A stretch of 20,000 nt of DNA from an uncultured virus (IMG/VR IMGVR_UViG_3300038303_000074) (taxonomy: Duplodnaviria > Heunggongvirae > Uroviricota > Caudoviricetes). The position numbers and the translations under genes were made by a program. How positions within the stretch are numbered: position 1 is the first letter of the stretch; every line of letters begins with the position of its first letter. Shown here one piece after another: positions 1,242 through 19,436 of this stretch. The stretch is taken from the IMG/VR virus record IMGVR_UViG_3300038303_000074, one strand, 5' to 3'. The notes under the pieces were generated by a model that did not search any database, was not told the origin of the DNA, and worked only from the letters and a program-made list of their open reading frames with translations.

Positions 1242-1496
1242 ATGATCATGTCTGCTGTAATGAATATCGGCGACGCTGTCGCTGCGATGGAGACCGGCGA
1301 GAAGGTTGCGCGCATCGGGTGGAACGGGAAGGGCATGTGGCTTGAGCTGCAGGTTCCTGACGAGCATTCGAAGATGACGCTGCCATACGTCTACATCAAC
1401 TACCCCGCGGATGCCGACAACACCCCCGGCGCTCGGTGCCCGTGGCTGGCCAGCCAGACAGATTTGCTGGCCAAGGACTGGGTGCTGGTGCAATGA
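1242..1496 (+). CDS. DUF2829 family protein, Thoeris anti-defence 2 (Tad2)-like nucleotide sponge
   Basis: Family signature G.KVARxGWNGKGMWL...PY.YI...PWLASQTDLLAxDW. The start could be 1242, 1248 or 1260. Confidence 0.85.
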   Translation: MIMSAVMNIGDAVAAMETGEKVARIGWNGKGMWLELQVPDEHSKMTLPYVYINYPADADNTPGARCPWLASQTDLLAKDWVLVQ

Positions 1497-2727: not shown

Positions 2728-3529
2728 CCACCTCGTAGTCTTTCGACACGAACCCCCGCCCGCCGATCAGCGTCGCCGGGATCATAATTTTCTTTTCTTC
2801 CAGCGTGTCCCTGTGCAAGGTGCGGATGTGCCCTCGCCGCCAGTGCTGGCGGGGGCTGGCGTGGGTGCCGCCCAGCGGGATAATGCCGCCTGATTTGCTG
2901 ACGCCTTTAATCTTGACGACGTGGTGGTCGTACAGCGGGACCTTCCCCTTTTTCAGGCGGCGCTTGTTGAGCCTTTTCGGGGCGGCTACCTCCGCGACTT
3001 CGACGGCGTCAGAAGCCAGAAGCGCCATCGCGACAAGTACCAGGTATACGGATTTATCAATCAAGTTATTGATTGCCTCGTCGGGCTCTGGCTCTCCTAC
3101 GAGCCCCGAGCGGCGGTAGGCGAGCTCGCCGTCTTCGACAGTTAGCGTGACCTTGTACAGGATGGGCACGTTACCAAGGCCGTACTCTGGAATTTTTGCC
3201 CCGCAGATAAACGGAGTGGCGCTGATGGCCCCCGCGCCATCGTTCCAAACGATCGCTGCAGCAAGCTGCCCGTTCATGGAGCACTCAAAGTACGAGATGT
3301 CAAAAGGCAGCTGCCCTAAGCCTTCCTCGAACATGTTTTGGCCTGTTGCGCCCAGCTGTTTGACGTCGTCAAAGGTAAAATCGCCCAGGTTAAACTTACC
3401 TGCGATGGCTAGTTGCGCTTGGCACGTAATGAAGTAGTCCCTTCTGGGTTTCATGTTTGAGCCAGACGTCGCCCCCCACATATTAATCAACGTGGTGAGG
3501 TCTTCCATAAGCTTATGTGCGTGTAACAT
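2720..3529 (-). CDS. Conserved phage hypothetical protein with C-terminal SPRxHxRRGHxR motif
   Basis: 269-aa ORF. The C-terminus KRLNKRRLKKGK...GGTHASPRQHWRRGHIRTL...KDY is a pattern I recognise from uncharacterised phage proteins. Confidence 0.75.
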   Translation of the reverse strand: MLHAHKLMEDLTTLINMWGATSGSNMKPRRDYFITCQAQLAIAGKFNLGDFTFDDVKQLGATGQNMFEEGLGQLPFDISYFECSMNGQLAAAIVWNDGAGAISATPFICGAKIPEYGLGNVPILYKVTLTVEDGELAYRRSGLVGEPEPDEAINNLIDKSVYLVLVAMALLASDAVEVAEVAAPKRLNKRRLKKGKVPLYDHHVVKIKGVSKSGGIIPLGGTHASPRQHWRRGHIRTLHRDTLEEKKIMIPATLIGGRGFVSKDYEVVT

Positions 3530-3541
3530 CTCAGGTCCCTT

Positions 3542-4198
3542 TCATTTCAACATCTCCCGCCGCACCCTGTCGATCACGTCGCCAGCGCGGTGGCGCTTCC
3601 ACTCCTCGAACGCATTCTGATCGCTCGCCGGGTACGCCACGCCATTGAAGACGCGTGCGGTGTTTTCATCCTCGGGCGCGTTGCCGAGCAGATGGTGGTG
3701 GTACTCGAACTTGACGCCCGGGCGGTAGCACCGGACGCCCAGCTCCTTGACCAGCAGTTCCCAGTAATCATCCACGAACCAGTGGATCAGGGTGCGGGGC
3801 ACCCAGTAGCCTATAGCTCTGAGCAGCTTGCCCCCGAACACCACACCGCCAGCGACACGATGGCCATGCTTCCAGCCGTCGTCCCCCCAGGCGATGCCCC
3901 AGTCACCGGCAGCCTCGATCAGGGTCTGGTCCCAGCCCTGCGTCACAGGGCGGCAGCCATCCGTCAGGAAGCCGTAGTATGGTCGATCAGGGGATGTGTC
4001 GAAACAGTGGTTCATGGTCTGGGCCAGCTCACGGTGCGGCTCAAGGTTCCAGGTCGACCAGTTGTCTGGCTCGATCAGGACGAGTTCGTCGCCGCCGTCG
4101 TTCACAGCGACAGCGGGGGCGGTCATGCCGGTGGCTTCGCAGTGTTCGACAGTCTGCCGGGCTGCACCGATCCGGTTGCGGGTTATAAGAAAAAACAT
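3542..4198 (-). CDS. Glycosyltransferase family 2 (GT-A fold)-like protein
   Basis: Motifs VNDGG, YGFLTDGCRPVTQGWD, IAWGDDG, HWFVDD and EYHHH resemble phage GT2-like proteins. Confidence 0.65.
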   Translation of the reverse strand: MFFLITRNRIGAARQTVEHCEATGMTAPAVAVNDGGDELVLIEPDNWSTWNLEPHRELAQTMNHCFDTSPDRPYYGFLTDGCRPVTQGWDQTLIEAAGDWGIAWGDDGWKHGHRVAGGVVFGGKLLRAIGYWVPRTLIHWFVDDYWELLVKELGVRCYRPGVKFEYHHHLLGNAPEDENTARVFNGVAYPASDQNAFEEWKRHRAGDVIDRVRREMLK

Positions 4199-4216
4199 CA
4201 GGGCTCCCGGTTAATA

Positions 4217-4274: not shown

Positions 4275-4559
4275 ATGGGTATCAAAAAAGAGTTGATCGC
4301 CGAGATCGACGCCTTCCTGAAATACTACGAGATCGCCCCGACATCGTTCGGTCGCGACTGCATGAACAACACCGCGTTCATGGAGCGCCTGCGCAACGTG
4401 GATGGCCGTGTCACCGACGCCACCATCGACAAGGTGCGGGCGTACATCAAGAAGCACGACGACAAGGACGACGCAGCCAAGCCCGTGGAGATCGCCCGGC
4501 GTGCAGGTCCACCTACCCCTGCCCGGCGCAAGGGTTCGAGCTGGAGGGCTGCCGTGTGA
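4275..4559 (+). CDS. Small HTH (Cro/XRE-like) transcriptional regulator
   Basis: The pattern IDAFL...IAPTSFGR..MNN..F..RLR...T..T.DKVRAYI is typical of small alphaproteobacterial phage HTH proteins; strong RBS. Confidence 0.7.
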   Translation: MGIKKELIAEIDAFLKYYEIAPTSFGRDCMNNTAFMERLRNVDGRVTDATIDKVRAYIKKHDDKDDAAKPVEIARRAGPPTPARRKGSSWRAAV

Positions 4560-4840
4560 GTACGTTAAAAGATTTCGACGAGACCTTCGAGACGATCACC
4601 CAGGACCGCGGCGTAGACTACGGCCACCCGCTGGACGACTTCGCCATCGCAGCCGCTATCAAGGAGGCGGTGGCGTCCTGCCCGGACAAGGAAGTCCGGC
4701 ACGCGCTGGAAATGATCGGGGTCAAAATGGCCAGGCTCTGCAAAACGCCGACCCACCCGGACAGCGTCATTGATATTGCAGGCTATGCCCGCACCATCCC
4801 CATGATACACGACGAGCGAGCACGGCGTAAGTTGCTTTGA
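4556..4840 (+). CDS. DUF6378-like (nucleotide-modification-associated, all-alpha) protein
   Basis: GTG at 4556 overlaps the upstream TGA; RBS GGAGG at 4543. Motif DRGxDYGHP.DDF...M..VKMAR...H.DS.IDIAGY. Confidence 0.75.
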   Translation: MSTLKDFDETFETITQDRGVDYGHPLDDFAIAAAIKEAVASCPDKEVRHALEMIGVKMARLCKTPTHPDSVIDIAGYARTIPMIHDERARRKLL

Positions 4841-6938: not shown

Positions 6939-7562
6939 TTATAAATCCTCCCACTGCTTAGCCAGACGCTCCGCGTTCTCTGCGGTGCGCTCGGCTTTAA
7001 GCTCTTCGATCCTGCCAGCGATCTGCTGCTCGTCGTCAAGGTAGCCCCAGGTCTTGCGGTTAATGATGGGACTGAGGTTCCCTTTCGACATTGGGTAAAC
7101 CTCTATTATGTCCGCGTAGCTATCACCAAGTTTGCGACGCGCGCGCATGTCAATGATGTCGGTCTCTTCATAGACGCGGTTACCCAACCTGTGGTTTCCG
7201 TGCCGCACTTTATCCGCAGCGTTCTCGGCGGCAGTCGCCCAGCGCAGGTTGGTGTAGTGGTTGTTCGAGGGGTTCCCGTCGTAGTGGGCGCACTGGTGAT
7301 CGTCGGAAGGTTTCGGCCCTACGAAAGCGTGGAGCACCAGAGTATGCGCCTGAACGGTTTTCGACGGTGCGTTGCGCCCCGCCATACCGGCGTCACGCAG
7401 TTTATATTTAACATACCCCTGGGGGTCGGAAGTCCCCGTCATAATTTTTCCGGCAGGGTACCTGTACGAACCGTCCAGGAGCTGGTAGCGGTCAACGAGG
7501 CTGCGTAGCTGGCCATATTCGGACACCTCGTACTCAGGGTGAATGCTCTGTCTCCACTCCAT
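6939..7562 (-). CDS. Free-standing NUMOD4-HNH homing endonuclease
   Basis: ATG at 7562 overlaps the MTase TAA (TAATG). NUMOD4 motif WR.....YEVS.YGQLRS; HNH motif HTLVLHAFVGPKP...CAHYDGNPSNNHYTNLRWAT.AEN; C-terminal HTH-like part. Confidence 0.9.
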   Translation of the reverse strand: MEWRQSIHPEYEVSEYGQLRSLVDRYQLLDGSYRYPAGKIMTGTSDPQGYVKYKLRDAGMAGRNAPSKTVQAHTLVLHAFVGPKPSDDHQCAHYDGNPSNNHYTNLRWATAAENAADKVRHGNHRLGNRVYEETDIIDMRARRKLGDSYADIIEVYPMSKGNLSPIINRKTWGYLDDEQQIAGRIEELKAERTAENAERLAKQWEDL

Positions 7563-8182: not shown

Positions 8183-8436
8183 TTGTCGTACTCCGCGCCG
8201 ACCCCGTCGAGCACGCTCTCCAGGTACTTGATGCGGGCGTGGTCTGCGGTCGCGGAAGTTTCAATCTCCTGCTCGATCTCTTCATCGCTGTTCACTTCAC
8301 TGTCGCGCAGGAACTGTATCTCGGCCAGCACGTCATGCAACCACGGCAGTTTCTTGGCCGTCGTCATCTCCATGCGGAACAGATCGTTATCGCTAGGGGT
8401 GCGACGACCCCGTAAATTATAGTTGAGTGTTGTCAT
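8179..8436 (-). CDS. Hypothetical protein (85 aa, acidic)
   Basis: ATG 8436 preceded by GGGAAGG; stop overlaps the MTase GTG start. Confidence 0.6.
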   Translation of the reverse strand: MTTLNYNLRGRRTPSDNDLFRMEMTTAKKLPWLHDVLAEIQFLRDSEVNSDEEIEQEIETSATADHARIKYLESVLDGVGAEYDK

Positions 8437-8465
8437 AGCAAAAACCTTCCCGGTTAAAGTTAGTG

Positions 8466-8652: not shown

Positions 8653-9459
8653 TTATGCCGCGCCGCGACGACGGCGGCGACCACCAGCAGCTTCTGCCGG
8701 AGCAGCTTCTGCCGGAGCAGCTTCTTCTGCCGGGGCAGCTTCAGCAACTTCTTCCGCCGGAGCAGTTTCAACAGGTGCTGCCTCCGCCGGAGCAGCCTCA
8801 GCAACCGCAGCCCTGCCTGCAGGTTTGGCATCGGCAGGGGGTGCTGCGATCGCACCTTTGACTGCACTCAGCAAACCGTTCTGGAGGTCCGCCCAGTCCA
8901 CAATCTTGAAGATCGGCGTGTACTGTTTGCCGTACTGCTTGTGGGTGTAGCTGTCACTTTCCAACACGACGATCGGAACCGGGTGCTGGTGTGACGGGCG
9001 GTTCTTGACTTCCTTGCGGACTTCATTGTACGCATTGATGCCGCCCTTGGAGGAGGCGTAGTATGCAGTCTGCACACCCACGTCTTCGCCGTTCAGGCAG
9101 ACCATCGGGAAACCAACCTGGGTCGTCCACGGAAAGTCGGGGTTACCATACGGAGGGGCAGGCTTGTTAGCCGGACCCATGGTCTCACCGAGTTTCGTAC
9201 CGGCCTGAGGCGAACCATCTTTACCCCAGGCAACCCAACCATGAGCGAGCTCAAAAATATTGATCGCCCAGTTGCTGTTTTCCTGTACTTCAACGTTGTC
9301 CGCACCGTAGACCCAGATGCCGTCCTTACCCATACGCATATAGGTTTCGCCGGACGTGCTGGTCGGGGCGTGCGCATCACCTTCAGCCATTGCGGCGTCA
9401 AGGTCTTCTACGGAGTTCACCGCTGCCGAGGCAGCGAAGTTCGCGATATCAGTACTCAT
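8653..9459 (-). CDS. Putative phage single-stranded DNA-binding protein with Ala/Glu/Pro repeat tail
   Basis: Motifs G.WVYG, HGWVAW, SSKGG and PVPIV.L.SDSY.HKQYGK.YTPIF.IVDW; located between the DUF2800 nuclease and polA; RBS AAGGAG. Confidence 0.7.
   Translation of the reverse strand: MSTDIANFAASAAVNSVEDLDAAMAEGDAHAPTSTSGETYMRMGKDGIWVYGADNVEVQENSNWAINIFELAHGWVAWGKDGSPQAGTKLGETMGPANKPAPPYGNPDFPWTTQVGFPMVCLNGEDVGVQTAYYASSKGGINAYNEVRKEVKNRPSHQHPVPIVVLESDSYTHKQYGKQYTPIFKIVDWADLQNGLLSAVKGAIAAPPADAKPAGRAAVAEAAPAEAAPVETAPAEEVAEAAPAEEAAPAEAAPAEAAGGRRRRRGAA
8686..8800. repeat. Imperfect ~15-bp coding tandem repeat (AGCAGCTTCTGCCGG) encoding (APAEA)n
   Basis: Directly visible at 8686-8715, with degenerate copies to about 8800; encodes the low-complexity tail of the SSB-like protein. 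Confidence 0.8.
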
Positions 9460-10783: not shown

Positions 10784-11566
10784 TTATTTCCCTGCTATTT
10801 TACGGAGGTCTGAAAAGAGTTTGCCAATAAGGCCTTTGGTTTTTGGCGGGCCTTCTTCCCAGAACATTTTGGCGAGGACCGTATCTCCGGCAACCCCTAT
10901 GATCTCGCCTGGCTTGGGGGCGTACATGTTCTGGGTCAGGTTTCCCTGCATGGCTACCCGTGCTCTGGCGGCTTTCGCCTGCATCTGCTCGGGGGTTACA
11001 GTGCTGCCGCTGCCTGTGGTGAAGCCTCCGACGACGCGCGACTGACCGAAGTCAGAAGGCCCCGGCACCCGCTCGACCGAGACCTTGACGACGCAGTCAA
11101 GCATGTTGGTGTACTCACCAGCCTGGGTCGTCATGCGCTCGCCGGGCTGCACCATGAACTTCTCGATCACGGCCGACTTCGTCTCTGACGTGACGGTATC
11201 TTCATCCAGCTCGGGGATCAGCGCGAACGTAGACTTCAGCAGCTTGTGCCAGCCATGGCCAAGGCCGTGCTCCATCGCGTCGAACTGGGCCTCGTAATAG
11301 TCGTCGTCTTCGGCGTTGCGAAGCAGTGCGGTCTTGCCGTTCATTAAAGGGTGGTTGCCGGTGTAGATGCCGCGCAAGGTTTTACCTGCCATGGGCTCGT
11401 CCTCTATCGAGGCGAAGATGTCCGAGCTCACGCCCATCGACCGGGCCAGTGATTTTACGTAGGTCGCTGACACGTTCGAGTACATGTCCCGCCAGGCCGC
11501 CACAGCTATGGCGTGACGCTGGTGCGCCTTCGCCATCACGGTGGAAGTGTTGAAGTCCGTAGCCAT
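10784..11566 (-). CDS. Hypothetical protein (260 aa), first gene of the leftward replication operon
   Basis: Long ORF with RBS GAGGAG; internal segment YTG...GKTALL...AQFD...GWH. Confidence 0.7.
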   Translation of the reverse strand: MATDFNTSTVMAKAHQRHAIAVAAWRDMYSNVSATYVKSLARSMGVSSDIFASIEDEPMAGKTLRGIYTGNHPLMNGKTALLRNAEDDDYYEAQFDAMEHGLGHGWHKLLKSTFALIPELDEDTVTSETKSAVIEKFMVQPGERMTTQAGEYTNMLDCVVKVSVERVPGPSDFGQSRVVGGFTTGSGSTVTPEQMQAKAARARVAMQGNLTQNMYAPKPGEIIGVAGDTVLAKMFWEEGPPKTKGLIGKLFSDLRKIAGK

Positions 11567-11598
11567 TCATAAATTTCTCCTCAGGTCTCAAAATTGTC

Positions 11599-11661
11599 TT
11601 GACGCAAACTTTGCTCATGCGCTAGTGTGCATTAATATACCGACTTGTTCCAAAGCGTCAA
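11599..11661. promoter_or_regulatory. Overlapping divergent sigma70-like promoters with an internal operator-like site
   Basis: Plus strand TTGACG(11599)-18-TAGTGT; minus strand TTGACG(11661)-16-TATATT. Near-palindrome TTTGCTCATGCGCTAG at 11610-11625. Confidence 0.6.
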
Positions 11662-13973: not shown

Positions 13974-14003
13974 CTTGCGCATGAGCAAGATGCGTGTCAA
14001 TGT
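13974..14003 (+). promoter_or_regulatory. Operator-like near-palindrome overlapping a putative promoter for the accessory gene run
   Basis: CTTGCGCATGAGCAAG (13974-13989); candidate promoter TTGCGC-17-CAATGT; shares a 12-bp core with 11611-11622 in inverted orientation. Confidence 0.5.
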
Positions 14004-15943: not shown

Positions 15944-16366
15944 TGAATGATGATTGACCAGAAAGCATTGGAAGCTGCTTATGAAGTCCTGCTTGATAAC
16001 TCTGACTTCAATATGTTCCCCGGTTTTGAGAAAGCCATCGAAGCATACGAGGCCGCAAAGCCACAGCCAGACATCAAAGAGTTATGGGCGTGTATCAGTG
16101 TTCTGTACGATGCCGCGTGTAGCTATAACCGCATTATGGATGCTGTTGGGACTACAGTTCCCATGTTGACGATGGACAGCAAAACATCCCCGCAAACTAT
16201 TGCGATAGCCAGAGACAAGCTGTCTGCATTTATAACTGGCACCGATGGGGAATGAATTATGATTAACCAGAAAGCATTGGAAGCTGCTGTTGAGGCCATG
16301 CGTGACTGCCACGCGCCCGACGCTTGTGCTGCTGTGGCAGTAGCCATCACAGCCTACGAGGCCGCA
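15944..16366 (+). repeat. Direct repeat pair at 309-bp offset (duplicated gene 5' ends)
   Basis: 15944-15979 vs 16253-16288 match at 34/36; 16034-16057 vs 16343-16366 match at 21/24. Confidence 0.9.
15947..16255 (+). CDS. Hypothetical protein; N-terminus paralogous to next ORF
   Basis: RBS GGAG; MIDQKALEAA...AIEAYEAA. Confidence 0.65.
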   Translation: MMIDQKALEAAYEVLLDNSDFNMFPGFEKAIEAYEAAKPQPDIKELWACISVLYDAACSYNRIMDAVGTTVPMLTMDSKTSPQTIAIARDKLSAFITGTDGE

Positions 16367-16588
16367 CTGTGGCAACCAATTGAGACGTTGGAATACAGCG
16401 ACGATCCGGTTATTGGTGAAAGTGAAAAAGTGCTCTTGGTCGATGATGCCGGAAGGGTTTGGGTTGGTAGTCTCATGTATGCGATCGGTAAAGGTCTCCT
16501 GTCATGGGGTTGGAACAACAAGCCTACCCACTGGATGCCGCTACCAGAGCCGCCGTCCCTTAAATCCACGGAAGGCGGCACGACATGA
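16259..16588 (+). CDS. DUF551-like domain protein
   Basis: WQPIET...VLL...PTHWMPLPEPP. Confidence 0.75.
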   Translation: MINQKALEAAVEAMRDCHAPDACAAVAVAITAYEAALWQPIETLEYSDDPVIGESEKVLLVDDAGRVWVGSLMYAIGKGLLSWGWNNKPTHWMPLPEPPSLKSTEGGTT

Positions 16589-16836
16589 GTTATCCAGCTA
16601 GTTGTCAGAACCCACGTTGTCGAGAAACCACACAACTGGAAGACCCACGCAGTCGTTGGTGGTGCGATGAGCCGATATTTGTTGCCGCCGATATTGTTGG
16701 TGAACGGACCGTTTTCAATATCGGCGGCAACAAATATCGGCTCGTCGCCTTAATAGATTATGAACTGCACGGTGTCTTAATCAGGTTTGTAGGAACCCAC
16801 AAGGAGTATGACAGAATAGACGTAGCGACGACTTAA
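16585..16836 (+). CDS. higB: Chimeric ORF: Cys-containing N-terminus fused to C-terminal half of a HigB (RelE-superfamily) toxin
   Basis: ADIVGERTVFNIGGNKYRLVALIDY...IRFVGTHKEYDRID is the classic HigB C-terminal half; the normal HigB N-terminal helices are absent. Confidence 0.75.
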   Translation: MSYPASCQNPRCRETTQLEDPRSRWWCDEPIFVAADIVGERTVFNIGGNKYRLVALIDYELHGVLIRFVGTHKEYDRIDVATT

Positions 16837-16874
16837 GCGATAAACACGTATTTATACACTCAAGGCGATAAACC

Positions 16875-17273
16875 ATGAAAACTGTAACCGTACCCGTTAT
16901 TAAAACCGACAAGGACCACGCAGCGGCTGTGAAGCAAATCGAGAGACTTTGGGGTGCCAAGTCCAGTTCCAAAGATGGGCAAACCCTCGATGTTCTCCTG
17001 ACCCTCGTGGATGCTTACGAAACCAAACACTTCCCGATAGACACACCCGACCCGTTAGAAGCGATCCTGTTCCGCATGGACCAGCAAGGCTACGGCCGTC
17101 GCGACCTGGTGCCAGACAAAGAGGCGCTGGAGATTGTGCTTGTTGCTGCTGAAAGTTTTATCACAATTATTGAGGATTACCCGCAAGAGGCAGACGCAGT
17201 GGCTAAATACAAAGCCGCCATTGCAAAACTGTATGCCGAAATCATAGACACACTTGATCAAGTGTCTACTTAG
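16875..17273 (+). CDS. higA: Chimeric ORF: HigA antitoxin N-terminal region, truncated within the HTH and fused to an unrelated helical tail
   Basis: IKTDKDHAAA...LDVL.TLVDAYE.KHFPI..PDPLEAI.FRMDQQG...RDLVP matches HigA. The expected continuation (IGSR.RVSEVL..KR.L) is missing. Confidence 0.75.
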   Translation: MKTVTVPVIKTDKDHAAAVKQIERLWGAKSSSKDGQTLDVLLTLVDAYETKHFPIDTPDPLEAILFRMDQQGYGRRDLVPDKEALEIVLVAAESFITIIEDYPQEADAVAKYKAAIAKLYAEIIDTLDQVST

Positions 17274-17290
17274 ACCAGCGAGGCGTAAAC

Positions 17291-17434
17291 ATGGCAAACG
17301 TACCCGAGACACAAACCAGAGTGGCACAGCTTGAGCGCAAGGTTGAGCTTATGGAAGAACGGCTAAAGAAACTTGAACTGGATAAATGGCCAGAGCCATG
17401 CAAATGTATTGGCTGTAGGCCGGACCTTTACTAA
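17291..17434 (+). CDS. Small hypothetical protein (47 aa; coiled coil plus CxCxxC), not in ORF track
   Basis: MANVPETQTRVAQLERKVELMEERLKKLELDKWPEPCKCIGCRPDLY; RBS GAGG; TAATG overlap with the next gene. Confidence 0.6.
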   Translation: MANVPETQTRVAQLERKVELMEERLKKLELDKWPEPCKCIGCRPDLY

Positions 17435-17631
17435 TGGACACAACAGGCGAGGCCGTGAACCTGATTATTGAGTTATGTAATATGCCGCGAGAACTACACC
17501 CGGCAGCAGAGCAAGTGCTTCGTGACGCCATCGCAGGCCATGCTACCGTGACCGAGTTTCGACAAATGTTTCACCTGTTTAATTCCGACTACCTGCAATA
17601 CGTCAGATGTGTTGCTCAATATTTAACCTGA
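17434..17631 (+). CDS. Hypothetical protein
   Basis: Translationally coupled 65-aa ORF. Confidence 0.55.
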   Translation: MDTTGEAVNLIIELCNMPRELHPAAEQVLRDAIAGHATVTEFRQMFHLFNSDYLQYVRCVAQYLT

Positions 17632-17642
17632 GGAGACCTGAG

Positions 17643-17882
17643 ATGGGAGCTTACCACAATGCACTGCGCGAGGAAGGCACGCGCGACGACCTGATGGAGG
17701 CGCTGGAGAAGGCGTGGACCGAGATCGAAGAGCTGCGCGCGCAGCGAGAGAACCAAGCCGCCCGCATGAGCATGATGACGTCGGTGGACCCGGGGGCACT
17801 GCAGTTCGTGATCGGCTACCTGCAAGACAACCCTTCACCCTTCGTGCAGAAAGTAATTAAAATACTTAAAGGGGAGACCTGA
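17643..17882 (+). CDS. Hypothetical protein
   Basis: ATG 17643 after GAGGAGACCTGAG; GC3-rich codons. Confidence 0.65.
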   Translation: MGAYHNALREEGTRDDLMEALEKAWTEIEELRAQRENQAARMSMMTSVDPGALQFVIGYLQDNPSPFVQKVIKILKGET

Positions 17883-17883
17883 G

Positions 17884-18228
17884 ATGAACAAAGCAGAATA
17901 CGCAGCGATCGTGAACCTGATCGACACCACCGTCCACCTGGCCAACAACGTGGTGATCGACCCGAAGATCACGCCGCACCTGGAGAAGCTTATAAAAGAG
18001 CGCGACACCGCCCGGCATGTCCTGCAGGCCCTCGTCGAGGAGCCCGACACCAACGTCGCCACCGTCGGCACCAAGCCGGTCGATGCTGAAGGCCGGGTCA
18101 TGCACAAGGTGCTTGGGGTTATCCCGCACGGTGGCCACGGCGACGACGCCTTCCAGGTCGTGCTGCCCAACGGCACCACCCTGCGAGAGGGCCTGATCGA
18201 AGCGATGTACGTGGTGGGGAAAAGCTGA
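17884..18228 (+). CDS. Hypothetical protein
   Basis: ATG 17884 after GGGGAGACCTGAG; GC3-rich codons. Confidence 0.7.
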   Translation: MNKAEYAAIVNLIDTTVHLANNVVIDPKITPHLEKLIKERDTARHVLQALVEEPDTNVATVGTKPVDAEGRVMHKVLGVIPHGGHGDDAFQVVLPNGTTLREGLIEAMYVVGKS

Positions 18229-18449
18229 TGGGAAGCTTCAGCAACCGACCAACCGAGGGCGGGTTCGCCTCCAGCAACCACAAGTTCCGCACCTGCCAGC
18301 ACAGCAGCGGCTGTGACAAGCCGGTGACCAAACAATCCTATTGCGATGTTCACTATGCGGCCTGCTATAAGCCTGCACCGGCAAAGAACACGTCGTTGCC
18401 GCGCACCGGCTACATGGGCAAAGTTGCGTGGGGAGGGAGCAGGAGATGA
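18228..18449 (+). CDS. Small protein resembling the C-terminal Cys/His domain of GcrA
   Basis: TCQ....CDKPV...SYCDVH...CYKP resembles the GcrA C-terminal C..P...C......YC..H...Y.P pattern. Confidence 0.5.
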   Translation: MGSFSNRPTEGGFASSNHKFRTCQHSSGCDKPVTKQSYCDVHYAACYKPAPAKNTSLPRTGYMGKVAWGGSRR

Positions 18450-18616
18450 TCGACAAGTCCATGAAGCGCAACAACTCGGCCCACCGTCCAGCTGGTAGCG
18501 AGGAGGGCCGTGCCGCCCACAGGTTCCAGTTCAGGAAGAAAAAATCTGTGAAGTGCGGGCTGCGGAAGAAGAAGGTTTTCAACCGCAAAATAAAACCTTA
18601 CCTGACCAAGCCCTGA
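18446..18616 (+). CDS. Small Lys/Arg-rich hypothetical protein
   Basis: ATGA overlap; strong RBS AGGAG. Confidence 0.5.
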   Translation: MIDKSMKRNNSAHRPAGSEEGRAAHRFQFRKKKSVKCGLRKKKVFNRKIKPYLTKP

Positions 18617-18658
18617 AATAGAAAACGCCCCGAGACCTGAGGATACCGGGGCGCTTTC
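18616..18658 (-). terminator. Intrinsic terminator (possibly bidirectional)
   Basis: Minus strand CGCCCCG-14 nt-CGGGGCG followed by TTTTCTATTT; the plus-strand tail (CTTTCATT) is weaker. Confidence 0.65.
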
Positions 18659-18720
18659 ATTCACCTGATGGGCTAACCGGGAAGTCAAAACCATCACAGA
18701 GGGTTCCAGGGGAGGAACTG
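18616..18720 (-). ncRNA. Candidate three-hairpin antisense sRNA
   Basis: Upstream minus-strand promoter, three hairpins with CU-rich loops, terminal hairpin with U-rich tail. Loops are complementary to repeated motifs at gene starts. Confidence 0.65.
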
Positions 18721-18723
18721 TTT

Positions 18724-18756
18724 TTGACAATACTCGAAAAACCGCCTACGTTGCAA
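18724..18756. promoter_or_regulatory. Overlapping divergent sigma70-like promoters
   Basis: Plus strand TTGACA(18724)-17-TACGTT; minus strand TTGCAA(18756)-18-TATTGT(18732-18727). Confidence 0.65.
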
Positions 18757-18779
18757 CCCTTATTAACCGGGATAGAAAT

Positions 18780-19436
18780 ATGCTAAAAAATCCATGCGAA
18801 AAATCCGGCTGCAAATACCACTTCGGTAACAGCTGCTTTCCAACGCTCGCTGCCGTGAAGGCGTGGGCCAAACCAAACAGTCCTGAACGCCTCAAGGGCT
18901 TCGCCCCCTCCCCCGGCGATGACATCTACGCGTTTCTCTGCGAAGCGCTGGAGTGCAGTCCTGATCGCGCCGACTACCCTGAAGAGCTGCCCCACAGGTT
19001 CTACCTGCAAGAGCGTGGTGGCGGCGACACCGGGCACTGGCCGCACTTCGGATACGAGCCTGAGTGGGATTTCCCGCACTCAGGTCCTGAACAGTTCGCC
19101 TATCGGCACATCTTCGAGCGCGACGCGACCCGGGCGCTGCGCCTGACCATACTGCGCCGCGCCATCCGCCCACAGCTCGATGCCGTGCGCGACAACGCTG
19201 TGGGCAACGTACATATCCATCATAACCCCCCGTTCGCAAAGCTGGTTACGGAGTGGCTCGCGCTTATAGGCGCGCCCCTGGAAGCGCTGGATATCACGCA
19301 CTACATCGACGACGGCTGGCTGTTGGAAGATGAGGACCTGGAGCTTAGCTGGATCGCGTTCCACGCGCACCGTAGCACCTTAACCGCCATGACCCCTGAA
19401 GAGCATATGGCTGCGCACCACGGGGCCAAGACGTGA
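18780..19436 (+). CDS. Hypothetical protein with HNH-like C-terminus (resembles DCL/DUF3223-associated proteins)
   Basis: LRRAIRPQ...VHIHH.PPFA.LV.EWL...D..L..SW.AFH....L......EH...H. Confidence 0.55.
   Translation: MLKNPCEKSGCKYHFGNSCFPTLAAVKAWAKPNSPERLKGFAPSPGDDIYAFLCEALECSPDRADYPEELPHRFYLQERGGGDTGHWPHFGYEPEWDFPHSGPEQFAYRHIFERDATRALRLTILRRAIRPQLDAVRDNAVGNVHIHHNPPFAKLVTEWLALIGAPLEALDITHYIDDGWLLEDEDLELSWIAFHAHRSTLTAMTPEEHMAAHHGAKT

Follow-up and report, generated by a model that had tools for sequence, protein, structure and literature searches.

We find that a 163-nt intergenic gap (18617-18779) in the rightward arm of this phage genome carries, in the loops of neighbouring hairpins, a copy of each of the two sequence motifs that recur just upstream of its start codons. 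Chance offers no explanation for the co-location of both copies in adjacent hairpin loops, which is the core of the finding. Judged from the sequence, the gap element is genuinely linked to the ribosome-binding regions of seven genes, since the further copy of both families, apart from one stray match each, falls in adjacent loops of this gap, and the association is very probably functional. The mechanism that we regard as the most economical, and to which we give slightly less than an even chance, is that the gap encodes a ~105-nt minus-strand small RNA (sRNA) that would pair with the start regions and block initiation. That this RNA is made, that it pairs with the sites and that the effect is repression we infer from the arrangement of the sequences.

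A non-coding element in the rightward arm

The window, by which we mean the whole 20,000-nt stretch analysed here (58% G+C), is taken from a 42,364-bp IMG/VR virus record, rated complete by CheckV, of which it represents bases 2090-22089 in reverse complement. Gene starts (47 genes) are our own calls from codon statistics and not an annotation. Recognisable genes encode a family A DNA polymerase, a DUF2800/PD-(D/E)XK exonuclease, a VRR-NUC nuclease, an SNF2 helicase, a RepB-type primase, DNA methyltransferases and a 3,656-aa polyvalent virion protein; the polymerase is only 34-38% identical to those of the nearest named phages. Codon statistics resolve a leftward arm, which runs from 11566 down to 2720, and a rightward arm, which runs from 11676 to the end of the record and continues into the structural genes; within 11676-22089 all coding is on the plus strand. 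Two plus-strand genes at 4275-4840, one of which carries a DUF6378 domain (E 1.6e-11), oppose and break the surrounding leftward replication arm and thereby make gene 4198 the first of a transcription unit.

The gap that contains the element is flanked by a gene for 56 aa, which ends at 18616, and by an orphan gene for 218 aa, whose start is at 18780. The minus-strand ORFs that cross the gap have negative coding scores, and the gap is therefore non-coding on both strands; an earlier note on this DNA had likewise read a stretch of ~105 nt here as non-coding. Coding readings of the minus-strand ORFs at 18410-18730 and 17835-18353 are ruled out by negative codon scores, and a search for tRNA and tmRNA genes found none.

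All strings, hairpins, motifs and coordinates given in the earlier note are reproduced on re-reading the sequence (Table 1). The CCUCCCCU of hairpin 1 is a generic anti-Shine-Dalgarno sequence, and the same hairpin followed by GTTTTTG forms a weak terminator-like site on the plus strand. The upper part of hairpin 3 carries UCCUCAGGUCUC, the complement of GAGACCTGAGGA (18632-18643), and its U-tract TTTTCTATTT (18625-18616, minus strand) adjoins the TGA stop of the upstream plus-strand gene. The run of A (8/10) that follows this stop on the plus strand would have no evident purpose beyond serving as the TTTTCTATTT U-tract.

Table 1. Coordinates of the element, its candidate signals and the proposed target sites
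Feature	Position	Strand	Remarks
Candidate non-coding RNA, ~105 nt, three hairpins	18617..18721	-	fold and negative coding scores
Candidate sigma-70-type promoter, TTGCAA (18756-18751), 18-nt spacer, TATTGT (18732-18727)	18727..18756	-	8/12 positions
Hairpin 1, GTTCC / UCCCCU / GGAAC	18703..18718	-	loop UCCCCU at 18713-18708, inside CCUCCCCU
Hairpin 2, TGATGG, 19-nt loop, CCATCA	18666..18696	-	loop with CUUCCCGGUUA, complement of TAACCGGGAAG (18674-18684)
Hairpin 3, CGCCCCG, 14-nt loop, CGGGGCG (18626-18653), with U-tract	18616..18653	-	intrinsic terminator
Candidate promoter of gene 18780, TTGACA, 17-nt spacer, TACGTT	18724..18752	+	9/12 positions; predicted
Target GAGACCTGAGGA, 12 nt	11578..11589	-	12 nt before ATG 11566, first gene of leftward operon
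Targets ACCTGAGGA (17626-17634) and GAGACCTGAG	17626..17642	+	GAGACCTGAG adjoins ATG 17643
Target GAGACCTGAG	17874..17883	+	adjoins ATG 17884
Target GGGACCTGAG	3530..3539	-	adjoins ATG 3529; 8 Watson-Crick pairs, 10 with one G-U
Target TAACCGGGAAG	8446..8456	-	10 nt before ATG 8436
Target TTAACCGGGA / TAACCGGGA	4205..4214	-	7 nt before ATG 4198
Target TTAACCGGGA / TAACCGGGA	18763..18772	+	8 nt before ATG 18780

The novelty of the element stands with respect to Rfam, which gives no match in the 20-kb window and none at E values up to 10. The best Rfam match within 18500-18900, to His_leader (E 0.41), reaches 20.4 bits where the threshold is 49, and no score for C4 antisense RNA, CsrB/Rsm, cuckoo or the alpha-proteobacterial sRNAs reaches the gathering threshold.

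Two motif families recur upstream of start codons

To describe the start regions independently of the gap, we counted the 8-mers in positions -24 to -1 of the 47 called genes without reference to the element. Only two families occur upstream of at least three of these genes, namely GACCTGAG (four genes, starting at 3529, 11566, 17643 and 17884) and TTAACCGGGA (three genes, starting at 4198, 8436 and 18780), which bears out the proposed enrichment of both motifs at start codons genome-wide. No 8-mer recurs upstream of at least three genes in a control phage with 49 annotated genes, and no start-associated 8-mers are seen in MW202483, the nearest named phage by PolA (38% identity). With at most one mismatch on both strands of the 42,364 bp, GAGACCTGAG has six matches, comprising the four starts, one in hairpin 3 and one elsewhere, compared with a single match in the reversed-genome control. 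TTAACCGGGA, treated alike over the whole genome, has five, comprising the three starts, one in hairpin 2 and one elsewhere, compared with none in the reversed genome. The element copies of the GACCTGAG and TTAACCGGGA families share the same orientation and lie ~40 nt apart. The motifs are thus asymmetric, placed near several starts in one orientation and rare elsewhere in the genome, as are the start-associated sequences (SAS) of the Cluster K type, and the genes that bear them are all non-structural. At 11578-11589, GAGACCTGAGGA is predicted to form the loop of a weak local hairpin.

The partly palindromic cores (CCTGAGG, a CCTNAGG palindrome, and the palindrome CCGG) would suit operators of a DNA-binding regulator, with the element as a cluster of such sites, and each of the three TTAACCGGGA sites comes after a gap (76-216 nt) that may contain a promoter. 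However, for three of the four GACCTGAG sites the position is internal to an operon, 1-12 nt past the previous gene and adjoining the ATG, and every copy keeps one orientation relative to its gene, which fits a role at the RNA level. We consider such a DNA-level function highly improbable.

The element is complementary to seven ribosome-binding regions

The complementarity of the element to seven ribosome-binding regions, first described in the earlier note, is present in the sequence, and its placement at starts is non-random. Matches of at least 10 nt between the element and the genome number eight in total, which is about the chance level, but four of the eight sit 1-12 nt before a same-sense start, so that their number is unremarkable and their placement is the non-random part. 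All seven sites match the plus-strand text of the element, in keeping with the sense orientation claimed for the targets; consequently only a minus-strand transcript can pair with them, and a plus-strand transcript can only mimic them. The sole other source of an anti-motif on a transcribed strand is one 8-mer at 19079, as expected by chance.

We compared the duplexes formed by the strict loop sequences in 47 initiation regions and 3041 coding windows at a cut-off of -16 kcal/mol or better. Loop 3 reaches this energy in 4/47 initiation regions versus 6/3041 coding windows (Fisher 9e-6) and loop 2 in 4/47 versus 40/3041 (p 0.004), and the sense-loop controls reach it in none of the 47 initiation regions. 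Seed complementarity to initiation regions, as expected of a base-pairing sRNA, therefore exceeds chance. Energies that include the stem bases are unspecific, with many GC-rich control windows beating the initiation regions, and duplex prediction with the whole RNA was set aside for its long meaningless duplexes. An apparent wobble bias at site boundaries, counted by hand (6/16 compatible versus ~3 expected), was discarded because the sites are not independent.

The ribosome-binding-site copies are slightly closer to each other than to the element (GGAGACCTGAGATG; TATTAACCGGGA), and the element is therefore no clear hub; neither similarity beyond the motif cores nor extended repeats around the motifs were found. 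The mutual closeness of the ribosome-binding-site copies, which includes SD-GACCTGAG-ATG as one cassette, would be expected if the motifs were initiation cassettes like the Cluster K SAS and the gap a bidirectional terminator and promoter region, whose loop motifs are relics of decayed gene starts or recombination joints without riboregulation. The confinement of the motifs to non-structural genes, as reported in parts of PMC3203893 for Cluster K, the T-rich flanks of hairpin 3 in both directions and the weak matches of both promoters would fit this explanation as well. It has to account, however, for the copying of both families into adjacent loops within ~50 nt and in the same orientation, for which we estimate a rough chance of at most 1e-3. 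Moreover, no similarity past the cores points to relic genes, and loops of 14 and 19 nt are unusual in plain terminators. We therefore judge incidental copying unlikely, if by no means far-fetched.

Terminator and fold lean to a minus-strand RNA

Hairpin 3 and TTTTCTATTT form a good intrinsic terminator only in the minus orientation, as had been proposed. In a census of 80 terminator-like sites hairpin 3 ranks seventh overall and first among the intergenic sites, and it points against the flanking genes. In the minus RNA it becomes, through G-U pairs, a near-continuous stem with a tetraloop, followed by TTTTCTATTT. Folding shows the same asymmetry. The minus RNA (105 nt) has a minimum free energy of -42.6 kcal/mol (z -4.13), which none of 200 shuffles equals, and the plus RNA one of -34.2 kcal/mol (z -1.23), for which 26 of 200 shuffles are as good.

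The proposed minus-strand promoter is borne out in its string and in its spacing to hairpin 1 but not in its strength. TTG and TAnnnT are present and the predicted start lies near 18721, ~3 nt ahead of hairpin 1, but TTGCAA-18-TATTGT agrees with the consensus at only eight of 12 positions, a common level of matching, and is reported by neither promoter scan, as it falls below both thresholds. It interdigitates back-to-back with the candidate plus-strand promoter TTGACA-17-TACGTT, that of the downstream (primase and packaging) operon. By eye, a possible 20-codon upstream ORF is also visible at 18724-18785 (plus strand); its start would be the TTG within the TTGACA box, 7 nt past GGAGGA, and its end would overlap the ATG of gene 18780.

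The free display of the seeds in loops, as pictured in the earlier note, is not supported. The seeds are partly hidden by the very G-U pairs that make the minus RNA more stable, the loop of hairpin 2 is partly closed by an inner wobble-rich helix, and opening the partly paired seeds costs 5-6 kcal/mol. As an independent transcript, the ~105-nt minus-strand RNA is thus favoured by the orientation of its terminator and by its fold, and disfavoured by its promoter and by seed accessibility. On balance, these strand-specific features lean to a minus-strand RNA.

In the plus RNA the motif copies are more accessible, requiring 0.9 and 4.0 kcal/mol to open. This would favour a plus-strand mimic, in which the element, as the 3' end or an intercistronic part of the rightward operon, exposes open loops that resemble ribosome-binding regions and titrates a trans-acting factor; candidates for this factor are a translational repressor, a GGA-binding protein of the CsrA/RsmA type and a host sRNA, the last of which would be sponged by the element. 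No extra promoter would be needed, given the continuous plus-strand coding of this arm, and both the GGA in every plus-strand loop and the terminator-like hairpin 1 with GTTTTTG would find a place. Yet two or three unrelated motifs would demand several factors or else a GGA-only reader, and the latter leaves 9-12 nt of identity with the ribosome-binding regions unexplained, just as the minus-oriented U-tract is left unexplained. The plus fold is no better than shuffles, no RNA-binding domain occurs among 22 small proteins, and no CsrB, Rsm or other family was matched in Rfam.

Csr/Rsm RNAs are built of several short hairpins that carry ANGGA in small loops. The plus-strand reading resembles CsrB, RsmY and RsmZ in its several hairpins with GGA in the loops and its terminal terminator. 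By contrast, the three GGA-bearing plus loops measure 6, 19 and 14 nt, far larger than those of these RNAs, and share more sequence with ribosome-binding regions than a GGA reader needs, so that the element does not look like a CsrA/RsmA sponge. We regard titration by a plus-strand transcript as distinctly unlikely; if true, the phage would carry a mimic of ribosome-binding sites, which would be unusual as well.

A possible modular antisense RNA

In the preferred mechanism, TTGCAA-18-TATTGT would drive the minus-strand sRNA in the direction opposite to the plus-strand operon around it, and transcription of the sRNA would end at hairpin 3 and the U-tract. Hairpin 2 would pair with the TTAACCGGGA family (genes starting at 8436, 4198 and 18780) and hairpin 3 with the GAGACCTGAG family (genes starting at 11566, 17643, 17884 and 3529), while the loop of hairpin 1 would serve as a general anti-Shine-Dalgarno sequence. 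Duplexes of 8-12 nt within -23 to -1 of the starts would block 30S binding, and the outcome would be translational repression of a non-structural gene set on both transcription arms. For the modular antisense sRNA of the earlier note, the seven-site complementarity and the strand features hold up, but the weak promoter and the buried seeds do not speak for it.

Separate hairpins may thus address two motif families on both arms, with a general anti-Shine-Dalgarno loop in addition. Extended to a self-contained translational regulon governed by one ~105-nt RNA, with phage SAS as docking sites for phage-encoded, loop-displayed complementary RNAs, the proposal is one that we hold tentatively and on balance rather doubt. 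If true, such an RNA, built of modules with a separate seed for each gene set, would allow compact timing of early-gene translation and would supply a concrete partner for start-associated sequences.

The element fits no described RNA family and, if the mechanism is true, would represent a new variant of phage antisense control. The c4 RNA of P1/P7 is processed from the transcript that also contains its target. The candidate RNA described here would differ in being transcribed from the opposite strand, between a promoter and a terminator of its own, and in addressing seven genes distributed over both arms. The likeness to c4 is that of a phage-encoded structured sRNA whose loops pair around a ribosome-binding site, in that case the ant ribosome-binding site on the ant mRNA, so that translation is blocked (sections on c4 in PMC12197685). 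Lambda OOP, as treated in the same review, is a short RNA of 77 nt that likewise has a promoter and a terminator to itself, is directed against the surrounding operon and acts in cis on the overlapping cII message (PMC12197685). The element here, unlike OOP, lies clear of any coding sequence, and the distance to its proposed targets is as much as 15 kb. There is hardly any documentation of phage sRNAs that govern, in trans, many genes of the phage itself, and the phage RNAs described in the relevant parts of PMC12197685 have as their targets either one message or host genes.

A parallel in Cluster K mycobacteriophages

The nearest parallel to the motifs of the element is the SAS of Cluster K mycobacteriophages (Pope et al. 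2011, PMC3203893), a 13-bp sequence found before 11-19 genes whose role is still called unknown in passages of papers from 2011, 2024 and 2025 (PMC3203893, PMC11373665, PMC12699233). Where they discuss it, the authors of PMC3203893 leave possible a host- or phage-encoded RNA or protein as its partner. From these accounts, the Cluster K SAS and the motifs of this phage share a short asymmetric sequence that lies a few bases before several non-structural starts, extends past the Shine-Dalgarno core and almost always keeps one orientation. Cluster K has one family with 11-19 copies, whereas this phage has two families with four and three. The Cluster K consensus GGGATAGGAGCCC, as given there, is unrelated in sequence, so that the resemblance is functional and positional only. 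Unlike what is described for Cluster K, each family here has an extra hairpin-loop copy in one intergenic element, a possible source of a complementary RNA. The literature that we retrieved, in the parts dealing with the SAS, contains no link between it and a complementary RNA.

K1 phages carry a single SAS copy in the opposite orientation, according to the corresponding part of PMC3203893. In Mycobacterium phage Anaya (record 59849-59899) we find this reverse copy in a 385-nt gap near the right genome end, where it forms the 10-nt loop and flanking bases of a hairpin, GCGCGG/CCGCGC, on a longer stem (fold z -3.99). The hairpin region is present in 138 phage records, 13 of which we aligned. 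The hairpin is kept in the aligned phages, with compensatory changes in 3/20 pairs; the loop is invariant in nine of 13 (eight at full length, and Murucutumbu without the last base) and its flanks are variable. The K1 hairpins are a second case in which the complement of a start motif is displayed in a loop. The loop differs in the other four records, including that of Ekdilam, which has 17 SAS copies within two mismatches of the consensus, 11 of them exact, and a homologous loop that is not fully complementary. Since Ekdilam keeps its SAS copies with an altered loop, such a complement is not a universal partner of start motifs.

Relatives and further features of the window

The only other record of this virus in IMG/VR is a contig that is 99.98% identical. 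The 218-aa neighbour starting at 18780 remains an orphan in the homologue search, the best homologues of the helicase are at most 44% identical, and a protein scan of metagenome contigs found no relatives. The two-seed pattern has no match in genome contigs, and in viral contigs, with the second seed two bases shorter, it matches the same virus only. Its single metagenome match lies inside a 454-aa ORF with no other similarity and no fold signal, and was rejected as chance; the 16-mer of loop 3 in four unrelated viral contigs was likewise judged to be chance matches.

Several further features of the window are recorded here in their own right. The 12-mer GCGCATGAGCAA occurs twice in inverted orientation, at 11611-11622 (minus) and 13977-13988 (plus), and two matches arise in seven of 200 shuffles; the first copy lies in the divergent promoter gap beside the palindrome GCAAAGTTTGC, the second directly past the helicase gene, and the copies may be operator sites. 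An island with lower third-position G+C at 15947-17434 (plus) follows a plus-strand terminator-like hairpin at ~15927. It contains two paralogous small genes at 15947 and 16259 (84% identity over 61 nt), a HigB-like toxin gene at 16585-16836 (Pfam E 3.5e-20) and a regulator-like gene at 16875-17273. Eight tandem copies of a 15-nt unit lie in 8667-8814, within the gene at 8653-9459. An HNH endonuclease gene at 6939-7562 (minus), between the DNA polymerase and DNA methyltransferase genes, may encode a homing endonuclease, and the gene at 1242-1496 (plus) encodes an 84-aa protein with a Tad2-like (Thoeris anti-defence 2) domain (Pfam E 2.2e-21).
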